From Bacillota bacterium (GTDB taxonomy: Bacteria > Bacillota > Sulfobacillia > JACIYH01): a DNA stretch of 64,000 bases. Positions 3,715-9,779 of the stretch are shown piece after piece. The stretch lies in assembly GCA_040757085.1 (NCBI GenBank), contig JBFLXJ010000033.1, positions 28,751-92,750 of the forward strand, in the 5' to 3' direction. The notes beneath the pieces were generated by a model. The model saw only the letters and a list, made by a program, of their open reading frames with translations, ran no database searches and was not told the origin of the DNA. The position numbers were made by a program, and so were the translations under genes. Position 1 is the stretch's first letter. Every line of letters begins with the position of its first letter.

Positions 3715-4085
3715 GAAGTGACACCCCCTCCGCGCGCGCAGAAAGCACTCGTCTGCCCCTGCACGCCGGTGTTAAGCTTGCCTTTGCACGGATTACTCAA
3801 CATCGCACAGCCCCACCGTACGCCTCGCCCTGTGAGGTCACCGAACCGTACCCAAAAGACGGCGGGGCGCACTTTTCCAGGTTCGCCCCGCCCGTGGTGG
3901 ATTCCTCGCTCACCGCCCAAAGCTTATTCCTTTGACGTGGGAGCCCTGGCGAGCCCGCGGCGAGGGGCCCGCCGGGCGGGCCTCGGAGGAAAAGTAAAGG
4001 CCGCCCGGCGGCTCCCCCGGCCCCGCCCGACTGCCCCCAAAACCGTCGGCAGAAACCGTTGCGGCTCAAAAGCTTTCAAAACTTT

Positions 4086-4173
4086 TGGTGCCGAAGGTGG
4101 GACTCGAACCCACACGGGCCTTGCGCCCACGGCGCCCTGAACACCGCGTGTCTACCTATTCCACCACTTCGGC
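4086..4173 (-). tRNA. tRNA-Leu(CAG), type II with long variable arm, CCA encoded
   Basis: The reverse complement folds as follows. Acceptor stem GCCGAAG/CTTCGGC. Anticodon stem CGGTG/CGCCG with loop TTCAGGG, giving anticodon CAG. Variable arm GGGCGCAAGGCCC. T-arm GTGGG-TTCGAGT-CCCAC. Discriminator A followed by CCA. Confidence 0.8.
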
Positions 4174-4310: not shown

Positions 4311-5237
4311 TCAGTGGGAGGTGACCATGTCCAGGAGCCCGCGCTGCCTCGCCAGCCGCTCGCAGCCCACGAAGACCGCCAGGCACACCAGCGCCAGAAC
4401 CAGGGCTGTCCCCAGCAGTATCGCCAGGATCACGCCGTCGGAGGCCCAGGCCAGGGCCCCGGTGGTCATGCCGCGACCCAGGCAGGCTCGCCGCAGTCCC
4501 TCGATCCACCAGGTGAGGGGTAGAACCTGGGATAGAGGTTGCACCCATCCCGGGAGGATGTCGACCGGATAAACCACTCCCGCCAGGACGTAGAACATTC
4601 CGGCCAGCGCTTCCGAATACACACCACCATGCCGGGCGCTCACCAGGTACACGCCAGCCAGGGCCATCCCCAGGGCGGCGCAGGTGAGGATTCCGAGTAC
4701 GAAGACGGGAAGGAAGTACGCCCAGTTCACCCGCGACGCGTACAGGGGTATCCCCAGGAACAGGCGGCCAAACGCGAGCAGAATGATTACCGAAAGGCCC
4801 CCGATGGCCGCGCCAGCAGCCGCTCGCCCCACTACATACCACTGCAGCCGTCCGGGGAGGATGTAGATGTACCGGAAGGTGCGGAAAAACTCACGGTCCT
4901 CCCAGATACACCAACTCACCCCCATCATGACCTGCCCCACGAAGACGAAGAAGGCATTGCCGAGGTACACGTGGGCGAACATGGGCGAGGAAAGGGCATC
5001 CCGGGAGATGACCAGGTACATGAAGACCAGGATGAGCCCCTGGGCTACGGGCCGGAAGATGGAATAGACCGCAAACAGGAAGGGATCCGTCCAGTTGGAG
5101 CCGATCTGCCAGCCCAGCCAGGCCCCCGTGCGCATGAGGTGCCACCACCCCCCGCGGACGCAAGCCGGATCGCCGGGCTTGCAGGGCAGGTCAGCCACCG
5201 CACGGGGATGGGAGCCCCCGGCTGAGTTTACTGCCAT
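4311..5237 (-). CDS. ABC-2 type transporter permease (second of two)
   Basis: The C-terminal ~300 aa of the 565-aa ORF 4311..6008 has a typical ABC-2 six-helix permease sequence. The ATG at 5237 overlaps the upstream stop (ATGGCAGTAA); an alternative ATG lies at 5135. Confidence 0.6.
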   Translation of the reverse strand: MAVNSAGGSHPRAVADLPCKPGDPACVRGGWWHLMRTGAWLGWQIGSNWTDPFLFAVYSIFRPVAQGLILVFMYLVISRDALSSPMFAHVYLGNAFFVFVGQVMMGVSWCIWEDREFFRTFRYIYILPGRLQWYVVGRAAAGAAIGGLSVIILLAFGRLFLGIPLYASRVNWAYFLPVFVLGILTCAALGMALAGVYLVSARHGGVYSEALAGMFYVLAGVVYPVDILPGWVQPLSQVLPLTWWIEGLRRACLGRGMTTGALAWASDGVILAILLGTALVLALVCLAVFVGCERLARQRGLLDMVTSH

Positions 5238-6100
5238 CGCATGGTCAGCCTCCCTTCCCGCTTGGCCACCCGTTCCATGTATCCCAGAGCCAGCGAGGCG
5301 GCGACCAGGTACAGTACGGCCAGGCCAGCATTGATCGCTACCTCCACCCCGGCGGGCAGGAACCCCATCCCGGCATCGCCGAATGCCAGTTGACGCAGGG
5401 CATCCAGTCCCAGGGCAAGGGGCACCACCGAGGCCAGGGCGGCCACCCAGAAGCCCAGGGCCTTCACGGGGAAGTAGAATCCCGAAAGGAGGAATACGGG
5501 CTCCTGCAGGAGGTTGGATAGGTGCCAGGCCTCCCGACCGTGCAGCAGGAAGAGGGAGGCAAACACCATGCCCAGCCCGTACAGGGCAACGAGGGTGACC
5601 AGGAAGGCGGCCAGCAGGAGGCCCAGCGCCTCTGTGCGGTACTCCACCCCGAAAGCAAGGCTGCCCAGCGCCAGCACGCCCCCCGCCCGCACCGTGGTTT
5701 GAACGATGCCGCCGAGGGCCATGCCGCCCAGGATGGACATGCGGGAGATGGGGGCGATGAAGAACAGCTCCAGTTGCCCGCTCTGCTTGTCGAAGTAGAA
5801 TGTCGACCCCATGCCCCACAGGACGTGCAACCAGTACGCGGAGATAGCCCCTCCTAACACGGCGTAGCCCACGAACACTTCCGGGGCCTGCAGGGAGCGG
5901 TAGATGTATACGTAAGCGGCCACGGCCAGGATGGGCAGGAATGTATCGAAGAACACCCATGACAACTCCCGATTGGTGCCCACCACCCGCACGTAAGCAC
6001 GACCCCACAGGGCCCGCATGTTGTCCACCAGGTAGGACGTCATGCTCGCACGGGGCAGGGCCGCTCCCGGCTGTCTCCTGTCAAGGCTCGCCCCGGGCAT
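5228..6100 (-). CDS. ABC-2 type transporter permease (first of two)
   Basis: ORF 5228..6109 is hydrophobic with an ABC-2 permease profile. I prefer the ATG at 6100, 6 nt after AGGTGA. It overlaps the 3' end of the ATPase gene. Confidence 0.6.
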   Translation of the reverse strand: MPGASLDRRQPGAALPRASMTSYLVDNMRALWGRAYVRVVGTNRELSWVFFDTFLPILAVAAYVYIYRSLQAPEVFVGYAVLGGAISAYWLHVLWGMGSTFYFDKQSGQLELFFIAPISRMSILGGMALGGIVQTTVRAGGVLALGSLAFGVEYRTEALGLLLAAFLVTLVALYGLGMVFASLFLLHGREAWHLSNLLQEPVFLLSGFYFPVKALGFWVAALASVVPLALGLDALRQLAFGDAGMGFLPAGVEVAINAGLAVLYLVAASLALGYMERVAKREGRLTMRWQ

Positions 6101-7241
6101 GGTCTTCACCTGCCGTTTCTTCCTCGAGACCCCTGCCCACCAGAGAGACGAAGACGTCCTCCAGGGTGGGTTCTTCCTTGCGGAATGCGCGCACGCGGAT
6201 GCCCGCCTCGTCCATGCGTCCCATCACGGGCACGATGGCGGCGTCCTCTGCGAGGACGAGGGTGAGTTCGCACACGCCCCGCCCCGGCACCACCCGCTGA
6301 CGGGACGACCTCACCCCCGGCCAGGCCGCAACCGTGGCCGCCAGGCGCTCGTCCGCAACCGCTTGACCATCCACCTCCAGGCGGATGACCACTTCCCGGC
6401 CCAGGGATCGCTTGAGGGCCGCCGGGGAATCGCAGGCCAGGATACGGCCCCGGTCGATGATGGCCACCCTGTCGCAGAGTTCGTCCGCTTCCGCCATGTA
6501 GTGGGTGGTGAGGAGGACGGTTCGTCCGGGGCACTCAGCAATCCACTCCCGGATAAAGCCGCGGATGGTGCGGGCTGCGTTCACGTCCAGGCCGACTGTG
6601 GGCTCGTCCAGGAAGATGACGGCGGGATCGGAGATGAATCCCCGGGCGAAATTCATCTTCTGCTTCTGGCCGGTGGACAACCGGTTGATGCGGGTGCTGG
6701 CCTTTTCCGCCAGGTCCAGCCTGGCCATGAGGGCGTCGATGCGGCGGAGGGCCTCGCGGGAAGGGATCCCGTAGAACTGGGAGAACATCCACAGGTTCTC
6801 CCGCACGGTGAGGACGTCGTATCCCACCGATTCGCCGCCGGAAACCATGTTGATCAGGCGCTTGACCGCCATCGGTTCCTTCACCACGTCATGACCGCCC
6901 ACCAGGGCGCGGCCGGACGTGGGGTAAAGCAGGGTGGCCAGGATCTTGATCAGCGTGGTCTTTCCCGCTCCGTTAGGGCCCAGCAGGCCGAATAGTTCTC
7001 CTTCCCTCACCTGGAGGTCGACCCCCTCCAGCGCCCTGATCTCTCGCACCACCCGACTCCGCCGCCCTCCTGGCCAGAACCGGCGCCCGCGGCCGCGGGC
7101 GTTACTGGCGCAGGCGCCAGCGGACGGCTCCTCCTGCGCGGCGGCCGGCGGCTTATCCTCGGCGGCGACCGGTCGCTTCTCCTTTTTCTCGCCCCGGACC
7201 TGGAAGGTGCGGGTGAGTTTCTCCGTTTCTATGGCGAGCAT
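6081..7241 (-). CDS. ABC transporter ATP-binding protein with a low-complexity N-terminal insertion
   Basis: Contains Walker A (GLLGPNGAGKTTL), the signature LSTGQKQKMNFARG, Walker B (IFLDEPTVGLD) and an H-loop (TTHYM). A strong RBS, GGGAGGTAAACC, precedes the ATG. Residues ~17-60 (KEKRPVAAEDKPPAAAQEEPSAGA...) are an insertion. Confidence 0.85.
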   Translation of the reverse strand: MLAIETEKLTRTFQVRGEKKEKRPVAAEDKPPAAAQEEPSAGACASNARGRGRRFWPGGRRSRVVREIRALEGVDLQVREGELFGLLGPNGAGKTTLIKILATLLYPTSGRALVGGHDVVKEPMAVKRLINMVSGGESVGYDVLTVRENLWMFSQFYGIPSREALRRIDALMARLDLAEKASTRINRLSTGQKQKMNFARGFISDPAVIFLDEPTVGLDVNAARTIRGFIREWIAECPGRTVLLTTHYMAEADELCDRVAIIDRGRILACDSPAALKRSLGREVVIRLEVDGQAVADERLAATVAAWPGVRSSRQRVVPGRGVCELTLVLAEDAAIVPVMGRMDEAGIRVRAFRKEEPTLEDVFVSLVGRGLEEETAGEDHARGEP

Positions 7242-7264
7242 GGTTTACCTCCCATCAGCAAGAA

Positions 7265-7288
7265 GAGAGCCGGGTTGCCCCGGCTCTC
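7265..7288 (-). terminator. terminator-like hairpin (attenuator candidate) 15 nt upstream of the ABC ATPase RBS
   Basis: GAGAGCCGGG-GCAA-CCCGGCTCTC is a perfect 10-bp stem. On the minus strand it is followed by TTCTTGCT and preceded by a TTTTT run. Confidence 0.4.
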
Positions 7289-7382
7289 CTGCAGAAAAAC
7301 GAAGACCCTCCGGCTGGAGCCAGGGCAATGCCCCTCCCGCTCCGGCCAGGGGCCCGGACAGCCTCACCTGGGCCGGGCGGAC

Positions 7383-7418
7383 CTAGATGCTGCCACCTTC
7401 CTCGCGGATTTTGAACAT
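7383..7418 (-). CDS. putative 11-codon leader peptide ORF (MFKIREEGGSI) upstream of the ABC-2 operon
   Basis: My own translation: GGGAGGAGGTG sits 6 nt upstream of an ATG, followed by 11 codons and a TAG. It lies between a sigma-A-like promoter and a terminator-like hairpin. Confidence 0.3.
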   Translation of the reverse strand: MFKIREEGGSI

Positions 7419-7451
7419 GTCCGCACCTCCTCCCGTACACGACCGTACGCG

Positions 7452-7481
7452 AGATTACCACATGCTGCCTACCAGTGTCAA
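7452..7481 (-). promoter_or_regulatory. putative sigma-A promoter (TTGACA-18-TAATCT with a TGg extended -10) for the leader and ABC-2 operon
   Basis: Minus-strand reading gives TTGACA (7481-7476), an 18-nt spacer, then TGGTAATCT (-10 at 7457-7452). It is located in the coaE to ABC intergenic region. Confidence 0.4.
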
Positions 7482-7522
7482 TCCCACCCAGGGCAACCGT
7501 CCCAGCCGCCATTCAGGGCGGC

Positions 7523-8143
7523 TCAGTCGCAGCGGTGGGGATGGGGCGCGTCGCGCGTGGCTTCCTGCCAGCACTGCAGCACCTGGTCGCGGGTCCGGTC
7601 CGGGGAGCCGTCGTTGTGGATGACGCGGTCGGCCAGGCGGACCTTCTCCTCGAGGGGCATCTGGGCCTGCAGGCGTGCTTCCGCCTCTTGCGGGGCAAGA
7701 CCGTTGCGCCTGCACAGGCGTTCGATCTGTTGCTGACGCGAGCAGGTCACCACCCAGACCTCGTCCACCGCGTCGCGCATACCGGCTTCCAGCAGTAAGG
7801 GCGCATCGATGACCAGGACCTCCACGCCCTGCTGGCGGGCCTGTTCCACCATCTCGCGGATGAGGCGGATGATGGAGGGATGGGTGATGGCATCCAGGTC
7901 GGCCCGAGCCTGCCGGTCGTGAAAGATGATATCCGCCAGGCGGGCGCGGTCGAGGGATCCATCGGGACGAAGGATGCCGCGCCCAAACCGCTCCGCCACC
8001 CGGGCCAGCACCGGACTGCCCGGGGCCAGCACCTCGCGCGCCACCTGGTCCGCATCCAGCACGGTGGCGCCCAACTCCCGCAACATGGCTGCCACCGTGC
8101 TCTTTCCACAGGCGATGCCCCCCGTGACTCCTATGACCAGCAG
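7523..8143 (-). CDS. coaE: dephospho-CoA kinase; the start is probably non-canonical (CTG)
   Basis: The P-loop GVTGGIACGKST is encoded in frame at 8130-8096, upstream of the first ATG/GTG at 8095. The in-frame stop TGA sits at 8161-8159. The only possible start codons upstream of the P-loop are CTG at 8143 and 8140, or ATA, with GAGGGGG/GAGGTGG just upstream. Confidence 0.7.
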   Translation of the reverse strand: MLVIGVTGGIACGKSTVAAMLRELGATVLDADQVAREVLAPGSPVLARVAERFGRGILRPDGSLDRARLADIIFHDRQARADLDAITHPSIIRLIREMVEQARQQGVEVLVIDAPLLLEAGMRDAVDEVWVVTCSRQQQIERLCRRNGLAPQEAEARLQAQMPLEEKVRLADRVIHNDGSPDRTRDQVLQCWQEATRDAPHPHRCD

Positions 8144-8165
8144 GCCACCTCGACCCCCTCACCAG

Positions 8166-9779
8166 CTACGGACCCTCGCGCCACCACCAGTCGTGGACGT
8201 TCCAGTGCCACCCGAAAGGCGACGCCACCGGGCCGGTGAGCCCCGCCCGCACGCCCAGGAAGACCCTCTCCGTCCACAGGGGGATGAAGGGAACATCCTG
8301 ACCGAGCCGGTAGGCCACCTGCTGGGTCAGGGATTTCCTCGTGGGGACGTCCAGCTCCTGCCGCAGACGGTCGAGCAGGACGTCCATAGCCGGCTCGCGG
8401 TAGGAGAATATGTTGCCGCCTCGCCCCTCGGCCGGGGTCTGGCGGGAGTGAAGGAGGGGGGTGAGGTCGGGATTGGCCGGGTAAGGCTCGGGGACCAGGG
8501 CCAGGTCGTAATCGAACGGGGGCTCAAGCCGCGCCACGAAGGCAGCAGGCTCCTCTGCGACCACCCTGACCCGGAGGCCCACCCGCCCCAGGTAGGCGGC
8601 TATGATGCGGGCAGCCTCGGCCCGGATTGGATCCCCACGCGGCAGCAGCAGGCTCAGGGGAGCGATTTCCTTCGCCCCGGCAAGCAGATCCCGCGCCCCG
8701 GCCGGGTCGTATGCTCCTGCGGGGACTTCAGCGGGATATGCCCAGGAAATGAGGGGCAGGGGGAAAACCGCCTCGCGCAGTCCGTAAACCCCACTGGCCC
8801 CCCCTGGCGCCCCGCCCGCCGTGCCGGTGGCCAACTCGCGCACCAGGGTGTGGCGGTCGATGGCCAGGGATATGGCCCGCCGCACCCCGGCATCCAGGCG
8901 GCTGCAGTTGAGAGCCAGGGCCACGTAATAAGGCTGGTGGGTCTCCAACACCCGCCATCCCCCCTGCCGCGCCCGTTCCAGGTCCGAAGGCACAACGGGA
9001 CCGGCGTCCACCTCGCCCTGGATGAGGACTCGACTCGCCCGGGCGAGGGACGGGTATATGTGCGCGACAAACCTGTCAAGGTGGGGACGCCCCCGGTGGT
9101 AGCGCAGGTGGGGAAGCAGGCCTATCTCGTCTCCCTCCCACGTGCCCAGGCGGAACGGCCCCGTCCCAACCGGGCGACGGGCGAAATCTTGCGCGGCCCC
9201 GGTACCATCAGCCAGAAGGTGCGCCGGCAGGACGGGCACGGTGGCCAGCCAATACGGGAAACCCGCATCGGGATATTTCAGGAAGAAGCGGATGGTACGG
9301 CTGTCCACCTTCTGCCAGGTAAGCCCGGGCAGAAGCTCAGGATGGGAGTGCAGGCTGAACACCACGTCGTCGGCGGTGACCGGCTGCCCGTCGTGCCACA
9401 TCGCGTCGGGGCGCAGGCGCACGGTCCAGTACACGCCTCCCCGGCCACCCACCCACCCCACGGCCAGATCCGGAAAAACCTCACCCCGGCCGTCTACCCC
9501 GGCCAGAGCAGAGAAGAGCAAACCCACCAGGACCTTTTCCGCCGGGCTGGTGGCCTCCCGGGGATCGAGGGATACCACCGGCCCCACCAGCGCCTCCCTC
9601 ACCACTCCCCCCTGGCGAACCCGCACGGCGGGCGCGGTGGTGGACGGCTCCCTCAGGCACCCCGCCCCCCACACGCCCATCAGCACGACCAGCAGCGCCA
9701 CCCCGGCCTGCCGCACGGTGGCTCGGGCCACCAGGCCCCGGCGCCCCGGCGGCCACCCGGCCCAACGAAATTCAGGCAT
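8166..9779 (-). CDS. ABC transporter substrate-binding protein, family 5 (peptide/nickel, OppA/DppA-like) lipoprotein
   Basis: Size and composition are typical of the SBP_bac_5 family. The N-terminus MPEFRW...ALLVVLMGVWGAGC looks like a signal peptide with a lipobox-like GAGC. I prefer the ATG at 9779 over 9818, which would overlap mutM. Confidence 0.65.
   Translation of the reverse strand: MPEFRWAGWPPGRRGLVARATVRQAGVALLVVLMGVWGAGCLREPSTTAPAVRVRQGGVVREALVGPVVSLDPREATSPAEKVLVGLLFSALAGVDGRGEVFPDLAVGWVGGRGGVYWTVRLRPDAMWHDGQPVTADDVVFSLHSHPELLPGLTWQKVDSRTIRFFLKYPDAGFPYWLATVPVLPAHLLADGTGAAQDFARRPVGTGPFRLGTWEGDEIGLLPHLRYHRGRPHLDRFVAHIYPSLARASRVLIQGEVDAGPVVPSDLERARQGGWRVLETHQPYYVALALNCSRLDAGVRRAISLAIDRHTLVRELATGTAGGAPGGASGVYGLREAVFPLPLISWAYPAEVPAGAYDPAGARDLLAGAKEIAPLSLLLPRGDPIRAEAARIIAAYLGRVGLRVRVVAEEPAAFVARLEPPFDYDLALVPEPYPANPDLTPLLHSRQTPAEGRGGNIFSYREPAMDVLLDRLRQELDVPTRKSLTQQVAYRLGQDVPFIPLWTERVFLGVRAGLTGPVASPFGWHWNVHDWWWREGP

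Follow-up and report, generated by a model that had tools for sequence, protein, structure and literature searches.

Introduction

In Bacillus subtilis, the bmrB leader controls the bmrCD genes for an ATP-binding cassette (ABC) multidrug exporter by means of a translated leader open reading frame (ORF), an intrinsic terminator, and competing antiterminator and anti-antiterminator structures (PMC4191407). According to the proposed logic, efficient translation of the leader lets the terminator form, while slowed translation favors the antiterminator and allows read-through; the BmrB antiterminator is described as less stable than the terminator (PMC4191407). Short upstream open reading frames (uORFs) that sense translation stress and control premature termination also occur in the leaders of the ARE ABC-F genes vmlR, msrD and lmo0919 and as E. 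coli toiL; they respond to ribosome-targeting antibiotics and lie 5' of genes whose products counter the stress (PMC9226507, PMC10314930, PMC12121999). Here we describe a leader with the same parts as bmrB in a 64,000-nucleotide stretch of contig JBFLXJ010000033.1, referred to below as the window, which comes from the metagenome-assembled genome of an uncultured Bacillota bacterium. The leader lies on the minus strand at 7481..7239, covering the ~240 bases 5' of an ABC-2 exporter operon, and sits between coaE (8095-7523, minus strand) and the three genes of that operon. Judging from its sequence, it is probably a transcription attenuator of the ribosome-mediated (leader-peptide) type, a part of the exporter operon that moves together with it. 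The comparison with bmrB is one of logic; drug induction has been demonstrated for bmrB itself (PMC4191407).

A leader with two mutually exclusive folds

Our searches turned up four distinct versions of the leader, that of the window and three from relatives. Two alternative structures, fold T and fold R, can be drawn for it. The window version contains the following features, ordered from the promoter to the ATPase gene.

7481-7476, minus strand: -35 box TTGACA, read from the sequence and the same in all four versions
18 nt, minus strand: spacer between the -35 and -10 elements
7460-7452, minus strand: extended -10 element TGgTAATCT; the relatives have TGgTATTCT or TGgTATCCT at equal spacing
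~7446-7443, minus strand: predicted transcription start
7434-7424, minus strand: Shine-Dalgarno (SD) sequence of the uORF, GGGAGGAGGTG, 100% identical in the four versions
7418-7383, minus strand: uORF MFKIREEGGSI (ATG, 10 sense codons and TAG), as read from the sequence
7380-7367, minus strand: segment A, CCGCCCGGCCCAGG, the 5' strand of both h1 and H-alt, beginning 2 nt past the uORF stop
7380-7337, minus strand: H-alt of fold R (candidate antiterminator 1), segment A paired with segment C; it excludes h1 and h2 and is invariant except for a bulged Y
7377-7353, minus strand: hairpin h1 of fold T, found in the minimum free energy (MFE) and RNAalifold structures; its sole variable column lies in an internal loop
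7352-7306, minus strand: hairpin h2 of fold T, the stem-loop of putative terminator 1; all its variable columns, including a 3-nt indel, lie in a bulge, internal loop or apical loop
7349-7337, minus strand: segment C, the 5' arm of h2 and the partner of segment A
7326-7317, minus strand: segment D', GCCCUGGCUC, part of the h2 3' arm in fold T and partner of the h3 5' arm in fold R (candidate antiterminator 2)
7305-7293, minus strand: U-tract of putative terminator 1, TCTTCGTTTTTCT (RNA UCUUCGUUUUUCU); one base varies and the rest are invariant
7288-7265, minus strand: hairpin h3, GAGAGCCGGG-GCAA-CCCGGCTCTC, a perfect 10-bp stem 94 nt past the uORF stop, putative terminator 2
7264-7257, minus strand: U-rich tail of putative terminator 2, TTCTTGCT (RNA UUCUUGCU); the relatives have TTTC, TTTT or TTTTT, then GA
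7253-7248, minus strand: SD of the ATPase gene, GGGAGG, 11 nt 3' of h3
7241-7239, minus strand: ATG of the ATPase gene

We call a promoter here because of the perfect -35 box, the extended TG and the conservation of both in relatives. A preliminary description of this DNA had placed a perfect 10-bp GC hairpin with a U-rich tail about 95 nt beyond the short ORF and the ATPase ribosome binding site 11 nt after it, and both are where it put them. It had also recognized the SD and the 11-codon ORF, but the distance between the 3' end of GGGAGGAGGTG and the ATG at 7418 is 5 nt rather than the 6 nt given there (7 nt when counted from the GGAGG core).

Fold T consists of h1, h2 and h3, with U-tracts after h2 and h3. 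Fold R combines H-alt with a second long hairpin (7336-7265), formed when the 3' arm of h2, released from its own partner, pairs with the h3 5' arm, an interaction we call D:E. The two folds have no base pair in common, and fold R removes both putative terminators. They are nearly isoenergetic, differing by no more than 1.1 kcal/mol in the four sequences, and H-alt belongs to the MFE solution for L084. The computed energies of the four versions are:

Window: fold T -65.6 kcal/mol, fold R -66.4 kcal/mol
L081: fold T -67.5 kcal/mol, fold R -67.3 kcal/mol
L082: fold T -68.7 kcal/mol, fold R -69.0 kcal/mol
L084: fold T -70.6 kcal/mol, fold R -70.1 kcal/mol

We compared this bistability with 300 control sequences in which fold T and base composition were kept and base pairs were permuted within hairpins. 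In the controls, the best fold lacking any T pair was 12.4 +/- 6 kcal/mol worse than T, compared to a real gap of -2.1 kcal/mol in the window and -0.8 kcal/mol in L082, values reached by only 1/300 and 4/300 controls, respectively. The A:C duplex behind H-alt comprises 13 bp with two single-base bulges (-25.5 kcal/mol) and was matched by 48/2000 dinucleotide shuffles. The D:E duplex joins 7326-7317 to GAGCCGGGGC (7286-7277) through 10 bp with one G-U pair (-21.8 kcal/mol), and 78/2000 shuffles did as well. In each of the four versions, no upstream segment pairs better with the terminator arm than segment D'.

These pairings extend the model from which we started. The preliminary description had an upstream segment pairing with the terminator arm over 9 bp; it does pair, with one G-U as stated, but over 10 bp and at 7326-7317. 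The same segment was said to lie in the 3' arm of an upstream hairpin, which we recover as h2. Its three mutually exclusive structures are all correct but form part of a larger two-fold arrangement that includes H-alt, and the ~95-nt gap that it left between the uORF and the switch is closed by the 13-bp A:C pairing, which starts 2 nt past the stop. Finally, h2 had been taken for an alternative upstream structure only. It exists, but it is also conserved and followed by a better U-tract than h3, and from these sequence features it is probably the first of two terminators in tandem.

For the appearance of terminators in this genome, we used as a reference the perfect 10-bp hairpin GGGCCGGGTG-TGGCT-CACCCGGCCC with the tail TTCGATTTTC (13596-13572, minus strand), and the U-tract of h2 resembles that tail. 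The 64-kb window has four perfect hairpins whose stem reaches 10 bp or more and whose loop is 3-8 nt long, h3 among them, compared to about one in shuffled sequence. The reference hairpin lies ~130 nt 5' of the polA start (13442) and could itself be a polA leader element.

Conservation in close relatives

The close set contains the window and the loci L081, L082/L083 and L084/L085, whose ATPases are 78-80% identical and come from three clusters in a large protein collection. The relatives have the identical three-gene order, but their operons lie behind pilM, pilN and a gene of unknown function instead of coaE. Since the leader is kept beside different upstream genes, the module appears to move with the ABC operon. 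Conservation begins ~10 nt 5' of the -35 box. Between the window and the relatives, identity is 39-48% upstream of the -35 box, 59-71% in the 5' untranslated region (UTR) around the SD, 50-58% across the uORF and 81-84% in the ATPase coding sequence. In the 116-nt core (7380-7265), it rises to 91-92%, and to 96-97% among the relatives themselves.

Within the core alignment, 12/119 columns are variable, counting the 3-nt indel in the apical loop of h2, and just three of these touch fold-T pairs, all of them peripheral (hypergeometric p=0.0026). The core of D:E and, apart from its bulged Y, H-alt are invariant, and h3 is conserved except for its loop-closing pair in L081. A dual constraint would account for this near-invariance because fold T or fold R pairs almost all of the core (103/119 columns).

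The uORF is conserved in a different manner. The relatives encode M(V)SLREVSGAV (L081 and L082, with SLR) or M(V)RIREVSGAI (L084, with RIR), and the residues R5, E6 and G9 are kept in the close versions. In the relatives, the start codon at the window's SD spacing is the second of two in-frame GTGs, a TGA occupies the alignment column of the window's TAG, and length differs by one in-frame codon, for a total of 10-11 codons. The distance from the uORF stop to segment A is 2 nt in all four versions, even though the spacer bases themselves vary (GU, AA, CA). The preliminary description had made its proposal depend on the short ORF and the alternative pairings being conserved in related genomes, and both are kept in the three relatives. 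Its interpretation of the region as a ribosome-mediated attenuator is thereby supported by the promoter, SD, reading frame, stop, hairpins and alternative pairings that these leaders have in common.

Beside these elements, we note that GCGGAC (7424-7419), immediately 5' of the uORF ATG on the minus strand, can pair without mismatch with GUCCGC (7382-7377), which directly follows the stop. At the same two sites, L082 has GGUGUC and GACACC, a double change with pairing kept, and L081 and L084 can form 3 bp only. This may be a weak stem enclosing the uORF and also occupying the first bases of segment A.

We considered whether coding constraint could explain the conservation of the core. An 85-residue ORF at 7512-7255 (minus strand) is interrupted by stops and frameshifts in the relatives. 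An antisense ORF at 7275-7736 (plus strand) stays open across the core, but its start and end are not conserved and the substitutions lack 3-periodicity. No other reading frame on either strand is kept as an ORF with consistent ends in the four versions. A 5-bp hairpin, CGGAG/CUUCG, before the U5 run was also set aside, as it is not conserved in the relatives.

The element appears confined to this clade in the collections we searched. Among GTDB species representatives, no ATPase orthologue is closer than 62% identity, and 80 GTDB orthologous loci yielded no leader homologue by blastn, nhmmer or covariance model. A covariance model of the core found no match outside the clade in the window, these 80 loci or 28 metagenome loci. 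Scanning metagenomes with the core 19-mer CCAGGTGAGGCTGTCCGGG gave 28 matches, 26 of which are chance occurrences in coding DNA and two of which are identical to the L082 version. We rejected a 25-nt match in L095/L102 as a recurring motif because it lies inside a coding region. Likewise, Rfam 15 (4227 families) had no match close to cutoff in window positions 6000-9000 with E values up to 10, the best score being 17 bits against cutoffs of 39-55.

Ribosome position and folding order

To relate the two folds to translation, we placed the leading edge of the ribosome at +15/16 from the first P-site nucleotide, following the toeprint convention (PMC6851288), and computed constrained partition functions for transcripts of increasing length. 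When the stop codon is in the A site, the ribosome covers 7380-7373, a stretch that contributes the lowest 8 bp of H-alt as well as the h1 5' arm. When segment C has just been made and the ribosome is absent or its P-site is no further than codon 8, the probability of H-alt is 0.96-1.00. With the P-site at codon 11 and the stop codon in the A site, this probability falls to 0.00-0.19. Once the 3' arm of h2 has been made, h2 is preferred at equilibrium. When the 5' arm of h3 has been made but its 3' arm has not, D:E forms with a probability of 0.83-1.00. The refolding barrier from H-alt to h2, as estimated with findpath, is ~18-19 kcal/mol.

These calculations suggest how the leader may work. 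Transcription would initiate at the leader's own sigma-A-type promoter, and the uORF of 10-11 codons, with its very strong SD, would be translated. The 5' strand of H-alt starts 2 nt past the stop, and a ribosome finishing the uORF would therefore force fold T: at the last codon or the stop, it would cover the first 8 nt of the H-alt strand and let h2 form. Transcription would then stop at terminator 1, with terminator 2 as a back-up. If, on the other hand, no ribosome were there when segment C is made, whether through a block of initiation, slow elongation or arrest at codon 8 or earlier, H-alt would form first. Kinetically trapped in this state, the RNA would use the 3' arm of h2 to capture the 5' arm of h3, and RNA polymerase would continue into the ATPase gene. 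In this scheme, an efficiently translated uORF would mean termination and a slowly translated one read-through, with translation stress as the presumed physiological trigger. A ribosome-targeting antibiotic is the most obvious candidate for that trigger and an attractive one given that the pump is DrrAB-like, but naming it is a guess.

We also tried a trp-like 2:3 antiterminator, in which segment B would be freed by a ribosome at the stop, and rejected it because h2 still forms in the constrained folds. At the level of sequence and in silico folding, the leader has an ORF with a ribosome binding site, a putative intrinsic terminator, a predicted antiterminator exclusive with it, and a choice between the two that depends on ribosome position.

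Leaders of distant orthologous operons

We extended the comparison to orthologous operons at no more than 62% identity, whose leaders have no detectable sequence similarity to that of the window. Ten of them have a uORF with a strong SD upstream of the ATPase gene.

L001 (2560-2842), Bacillota: uORF MIRSFVRLRS..., 41 codons; terminator-like hairpins just 5' of the ATPase SD
L011 (2640-2938), Bacillota: uORF MLRMRNSSGS..., 30 codons; terminator-like hairpins just 5' of the ATPase SD
L015 (2680-2977), Bacillota: uORF MAVRLIRDSVGG..., 31 codons; terminator-like hairpins just 5' of the ATPase SD
L017 (2650-2950), Bacillota: uORF MTKVRLIEVT..., 22 codons; two terminator-like hairpins in tandem, as in the window
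L116 (1250-1500), Bacillota: uORF MIRAALIPGEVYTFVCPCKDAT, 22 codons; terminator-like hairpins just 5' of the ATPase SD
L053 and L062 (2640-2915), Zixibacteria: TTGACA/TATAAT promoter and a 24-codon uORF, M(K/I)IRINTN...RLK
L024, L031 and L063 (2640-2906), Ignavibacteria: uORF of 31-32 codons, ...QGxS(V/M)PI...RRLL

The Zixibacteria and Ignavibacteria leaders have a strong SD and a nearly identical terminator, ACCGTGRCYTAT(C/G)CAGAGTAGRTCACGGTTTT, and their uORF peptides are conserved around G-x-S/T-hydrophobic-P. The apical half of this terminator is complementary to the last uORF codons and the stop; in the Ignavibacteria, the partner of the terminator arm, CUACUCUGAAUAGG, spans the UGA. In L116, uORF codons 15-18 contain an 11-nt stretch, GUCUGCCCAUG, that is the exact complement of the terminator segment CAUGGGCAGAC. 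Nine of the ten leaders could be scored, and in seven of these nine the terminator 5' arm pairs best with a segment within the uORF or spanning its stop. The exceptions are L001, with the partner at the start of the uORF, and L053, with weak pairing; for L017, no terminator was called in the scoring. The five Bacillota peptides begin with M-x-(K/R)-(I/V/M)-R or M-I-R. An Rfam scan of nine of the distant loci gave no family match. The orthologues of Limnochorda pilosa, Carboxydochorda, L117 and L118 have no comparable leader, and the feature is frequent rather than universal.

As far as these sequence patterns go, their recurrence is independent support for the view that exporters of this type are commonly under uORF-dependent attenuation. 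The occurrence of uORF-plus-terminator leaders in three phyla suggests selective pressure tied to the exporter and hints at its function. A bolder proposal is that the window leader is one branch of an undescribed cross-phylum set of attenuators that accompany orthologous DrrAB-like exporters in Bacillota, Zixibacteria and Ignavibacteria. Its members would share an antiterminator strand in the uORF or at its stop and an N-terminal (K/R)-(I/V/L/M)-R core that resembles the +X+ motif of macrolide and ketolide leader peptides. We hold this as a speculative and rather doubtful extension. If it were true, the exporter would be an inducible defense against ribosome-targeting antibiotics or other translation stress, with the leaders acting as its sensors in many environmental lineages.

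The exporter operon and its neighbors

The operon that the leader would regulate encodes a DrrA-type ABC ATPase and two ABC-2 permeases.

4311..7241, minus strand: regulated operon
7241-6081, minus strand: ABC ATPase (Pfam ABC_tran and DrrA1-3_C)
6109-5228, minus strand: permease 1 (Pfam ABC2_membrane)
~5198-4311, minus strand: permease 2 (Pfam ABC2_membrane), start uncertain

The ATPase scores 296 bits against NCBIfam TIGR01188 (drrA), below the 312-bit cutoff, and its match to the Otr(C) model is far under cutoff. Orthologues at 47-62% identity are found in many bacterial and archaeal phyla. The low-complexity insertion of ~45 residues that had been reported near the N-terminus is indeed there: ~44 residues rich in P, A, G, E and R separate the first two beta-strands when the protein is compared to the 331-residue Thermus-type homologues, which do not have it. 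It occupies residues ~18-65 (window 7100-7190, minus strand), and its length and sequence vary even in the closest relatives, which are proteins of 367-386 residues. The Limnochorda ATPase has a long C-terminal low-complexity tail instead.

The end of the ATPase gene overlaps the start of permease 1 by 29 nt (6081-6109, minus strand), with overlaps of 8-17 nt in the relatives, which suggests translational coupling within the operon. Directly 3' of permease 2 is a tRNA-Leu(CAG) gene (4086-4173, minus strand), and after it comes a short GC hairpin that runs into the tail CTTTACTTTT (4000-4012, minus strand); the operon and the tRNA may have a terminator in common. At the other end of the locus, the hairpin GCCGCC-CTGAAT-GGCGGC (7522-7505, minus strand) abuts the coaE stop codon (7525-7523). 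It has no U-tract and is absent in the relatives, and it may be a weak terminator or stabilizer of coaE. We rejected the idea that the leader hairpins terminate the upstream gene, as the leader's promoter separates them from that gene and the module accompanies the ABC operon.

Evidence against attenuation and alternative explanations

Several results weigh against the attenuator that we favor. The fully transcribed leader prefers fold T at equilibrium, with a probability of 0.87-0.99 for h2 in two of three sequences and ~0.9 for h3. Since h2 and h3 win at equilibrium, read-through must be kinetic, which is common among attenuators, and our model assumes the trap. Transcription in Bacillota can outrun translation, and the ribosome would then need an RNA polymerase pause; none was identified in the leader. 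The structures are supported by the absence of disrupting changes, as the stems are invariant and the four close sequences have no compensatory covariation. Both U-tracts are interrupted, and the tail of terminator 2 is poorer in the window (UUCUUGCU) than in the relatives. The promoter had been described as a good sigma-A site of the form TTGACA-18-TGgTAATCT. It is present and kept in the relatives, but its -10 hexamer TAATCT is weak, matching TATAAT at 3/6 positions (3-4/6 across the versions), and a consensus promoter scan of the sequence did not call it. The uORF peptide has 4/11 residues identical between the window and the relatives, which does not establish a sequence-specific arrest peptide. 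Finally, the sequence is rich in GC and in CCGG, which eases alternative pairing; the whole-leader folding z-score of -1.54 is unremarkable, and single duplexes reach p ~0.02-0.04 against shuffles (~0.10 for A+B versus C). For this reason, our argument is built on the bistability of the two whole folds and on conservation instead of on individual duplexes.

The poorly conserved peptide would fit a switch in which a small molecule or protein stabilizes fold T or fold R, with the uORF incidental or modulating. Two folds so close in energy could be tipped by a modest binding energy, and conservation of the core extends to nucleotides that fold T leaves single-stranded, for instance the h1 loop GGUGAGG. 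However, the invariant positions left unpaired in fold T either pair in fold R or sit in U-tracts, and their conservation can be understood without a ligand. Each fold is a plain series of stacked hairpins that lacks a multi-helix junction and any evident pocket. Rfam gave no match, the covariance model is silent outside the clade, and no regulator gene is conserved beside the operon in the relatives. Such a switch would also leave unaccounted for why the SD is invariant, why the reading frame is maintained and why the stop and the switch are always 2 nt apart, and we regard it as unlikely.

The equilibrium preference for fold T, which holds for the full leader in most versions, together with the imperfect U-tracts raises the question of whether there is a switch at all. 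The hairpins could belong to a constitutive structured 5' UTR, serving to stabilize the message or as a leaky insulator, with the uORF encoding a small protein or acting as an enhancer. In line with an insulator, the upstream genes (coaE here and a 211-residue ORF in the relatives) have no canonical terminator, the hairpin at 7522-7505 being without a U-tract. Yet the leader's promoter follows the upstream gene and precedes the hairpins, and insulation by them would also halt transcripts of the operon itself. Moreover, a conserved second fold that removes the terminators is rare in the controls that keep fold T, and the fixed juxtaposition of stop and antiterminator recurs in unrelated leaders of orthologous operons. 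We therefore give a constitutive leader little credence.

With a promoter, a strong SD, an ORF of 11 codons and a terminator-like hairpin that ends in a U-tract, the unit also resembles a complete gene. It could be an independent small RNA or small-protein gene that produces a ~150-nt transcript ending at terminator 1, possibly of dual function and acting mainly in trans, with the exporter expressed only by occasional read-through. Trans-acting products of attenuators are documented, as small RNAs and leader peptides derived from them, for example rnTrpL/peTrpL (PMC6614838, PMC7298713). Nonetheless, the element is always found directly 5' of the ABC-2 operon, there is no other promoter in the 50 nt before the ATPase SD, and the conserved D:E pairing and the second terminator make sense only in cis. 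The window contains no second copy and no target-like complement that we could see. As a replacement for the attenuator, an independent gene is thus very improbable; as an addition to it, it is compatible. The classical layout of leader ORF, antiterminator strand beside the stop and terminator also recalls amino-acid attenuators of the trp, his or leu type, but sensing of one charged tRNA is scarcely credible given that the four leaders have no codon run or tandem repeat, that the conserved R, E and G are single positions, and that the downstream genes encode an exporter instead of a biosynthetic pathway.

A ribosome-mediated attenuator would give a concrete regulatory model for an uncharacterized DrrAB-type exporter. 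Should the leader respond to translation stress, its operon probably encodes an inducible exporter of drugs or toxins in an uncultured Bacillota, and the leader would be a compact sensor that could be transferred to reporters. With two tandem terminators removed together by a two-helix antiterminator relay, this bistable 116-nt RNA is also of interest for the design of RNA switches.

Comparison with known systems

Short leader peptides with a +X+ motif offer one point of comparison for the uORF. The window peptide has K3-I4-R5 and that of L084 has R-I-R (MRIR when read from the second GTG), while KVR, RMR, RLR and KIR occur close to the N-terminus of peptides in the distant leaders. In our constrained folds, the window's antiterminator strand would stay free if a ribosome stalled with codon 4 in the P-site. 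On the other hand, the motif is missing in L081 and L082, which have SLR, arginine-rich short peptides are expected from GC-rich DNA, and the observation was made post hoc. We treat the resemblance as a lead only. The tlrB leader works by SD sequestration and a NusG-dependent pause, and we identified neither in the window leader.

The uORFs in the leaders of the ARE ABC-F genes and toiL are likewise short, but the genes they control encode ribosome-protection factors or a toxin-antitoxin system instead of an exporter. Their leaders have no sequence or structural homology to the one described here, and toiL acts via Rho (PMC9226507, PMC10314930, PMC12121999).

In the trp, his and pheL attenuators of Proteobacteria, a ribosome at the leader stop masks the 5' strand of the antiterminator and lets the terminator form, whereas one detained further 5' keeps that strand available; we propose the same for the window, and in both cases the RNA has two exclusive folds. 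These leaders contain regulatory codon runs, which the window leader does not, and it precedes transporter genes. In addition, its competing hairpin h1 lies 3' of the antiterminator strand instead of within the ORF.

The bmrB leader is nearest in proposed logic, although the two have no sequence similarity. BmrB has 53 codons with the terminator inside the ORF (PMC4191407), whereas the window uORF has 10-11 codons and its whole switch lies 3' of the stop. The exporters differ as well: BmrCD is a pair of half-transporters, and the window encodes a DrrAB-type ABC-2 system of one ATPase and two permeases. Unlike bmrB, the window leader has two putative terminators in tandem and a relay of two antiterminator helices. 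As an attenuator, the leader would be a new sequence family that represents a well-known kind of control.

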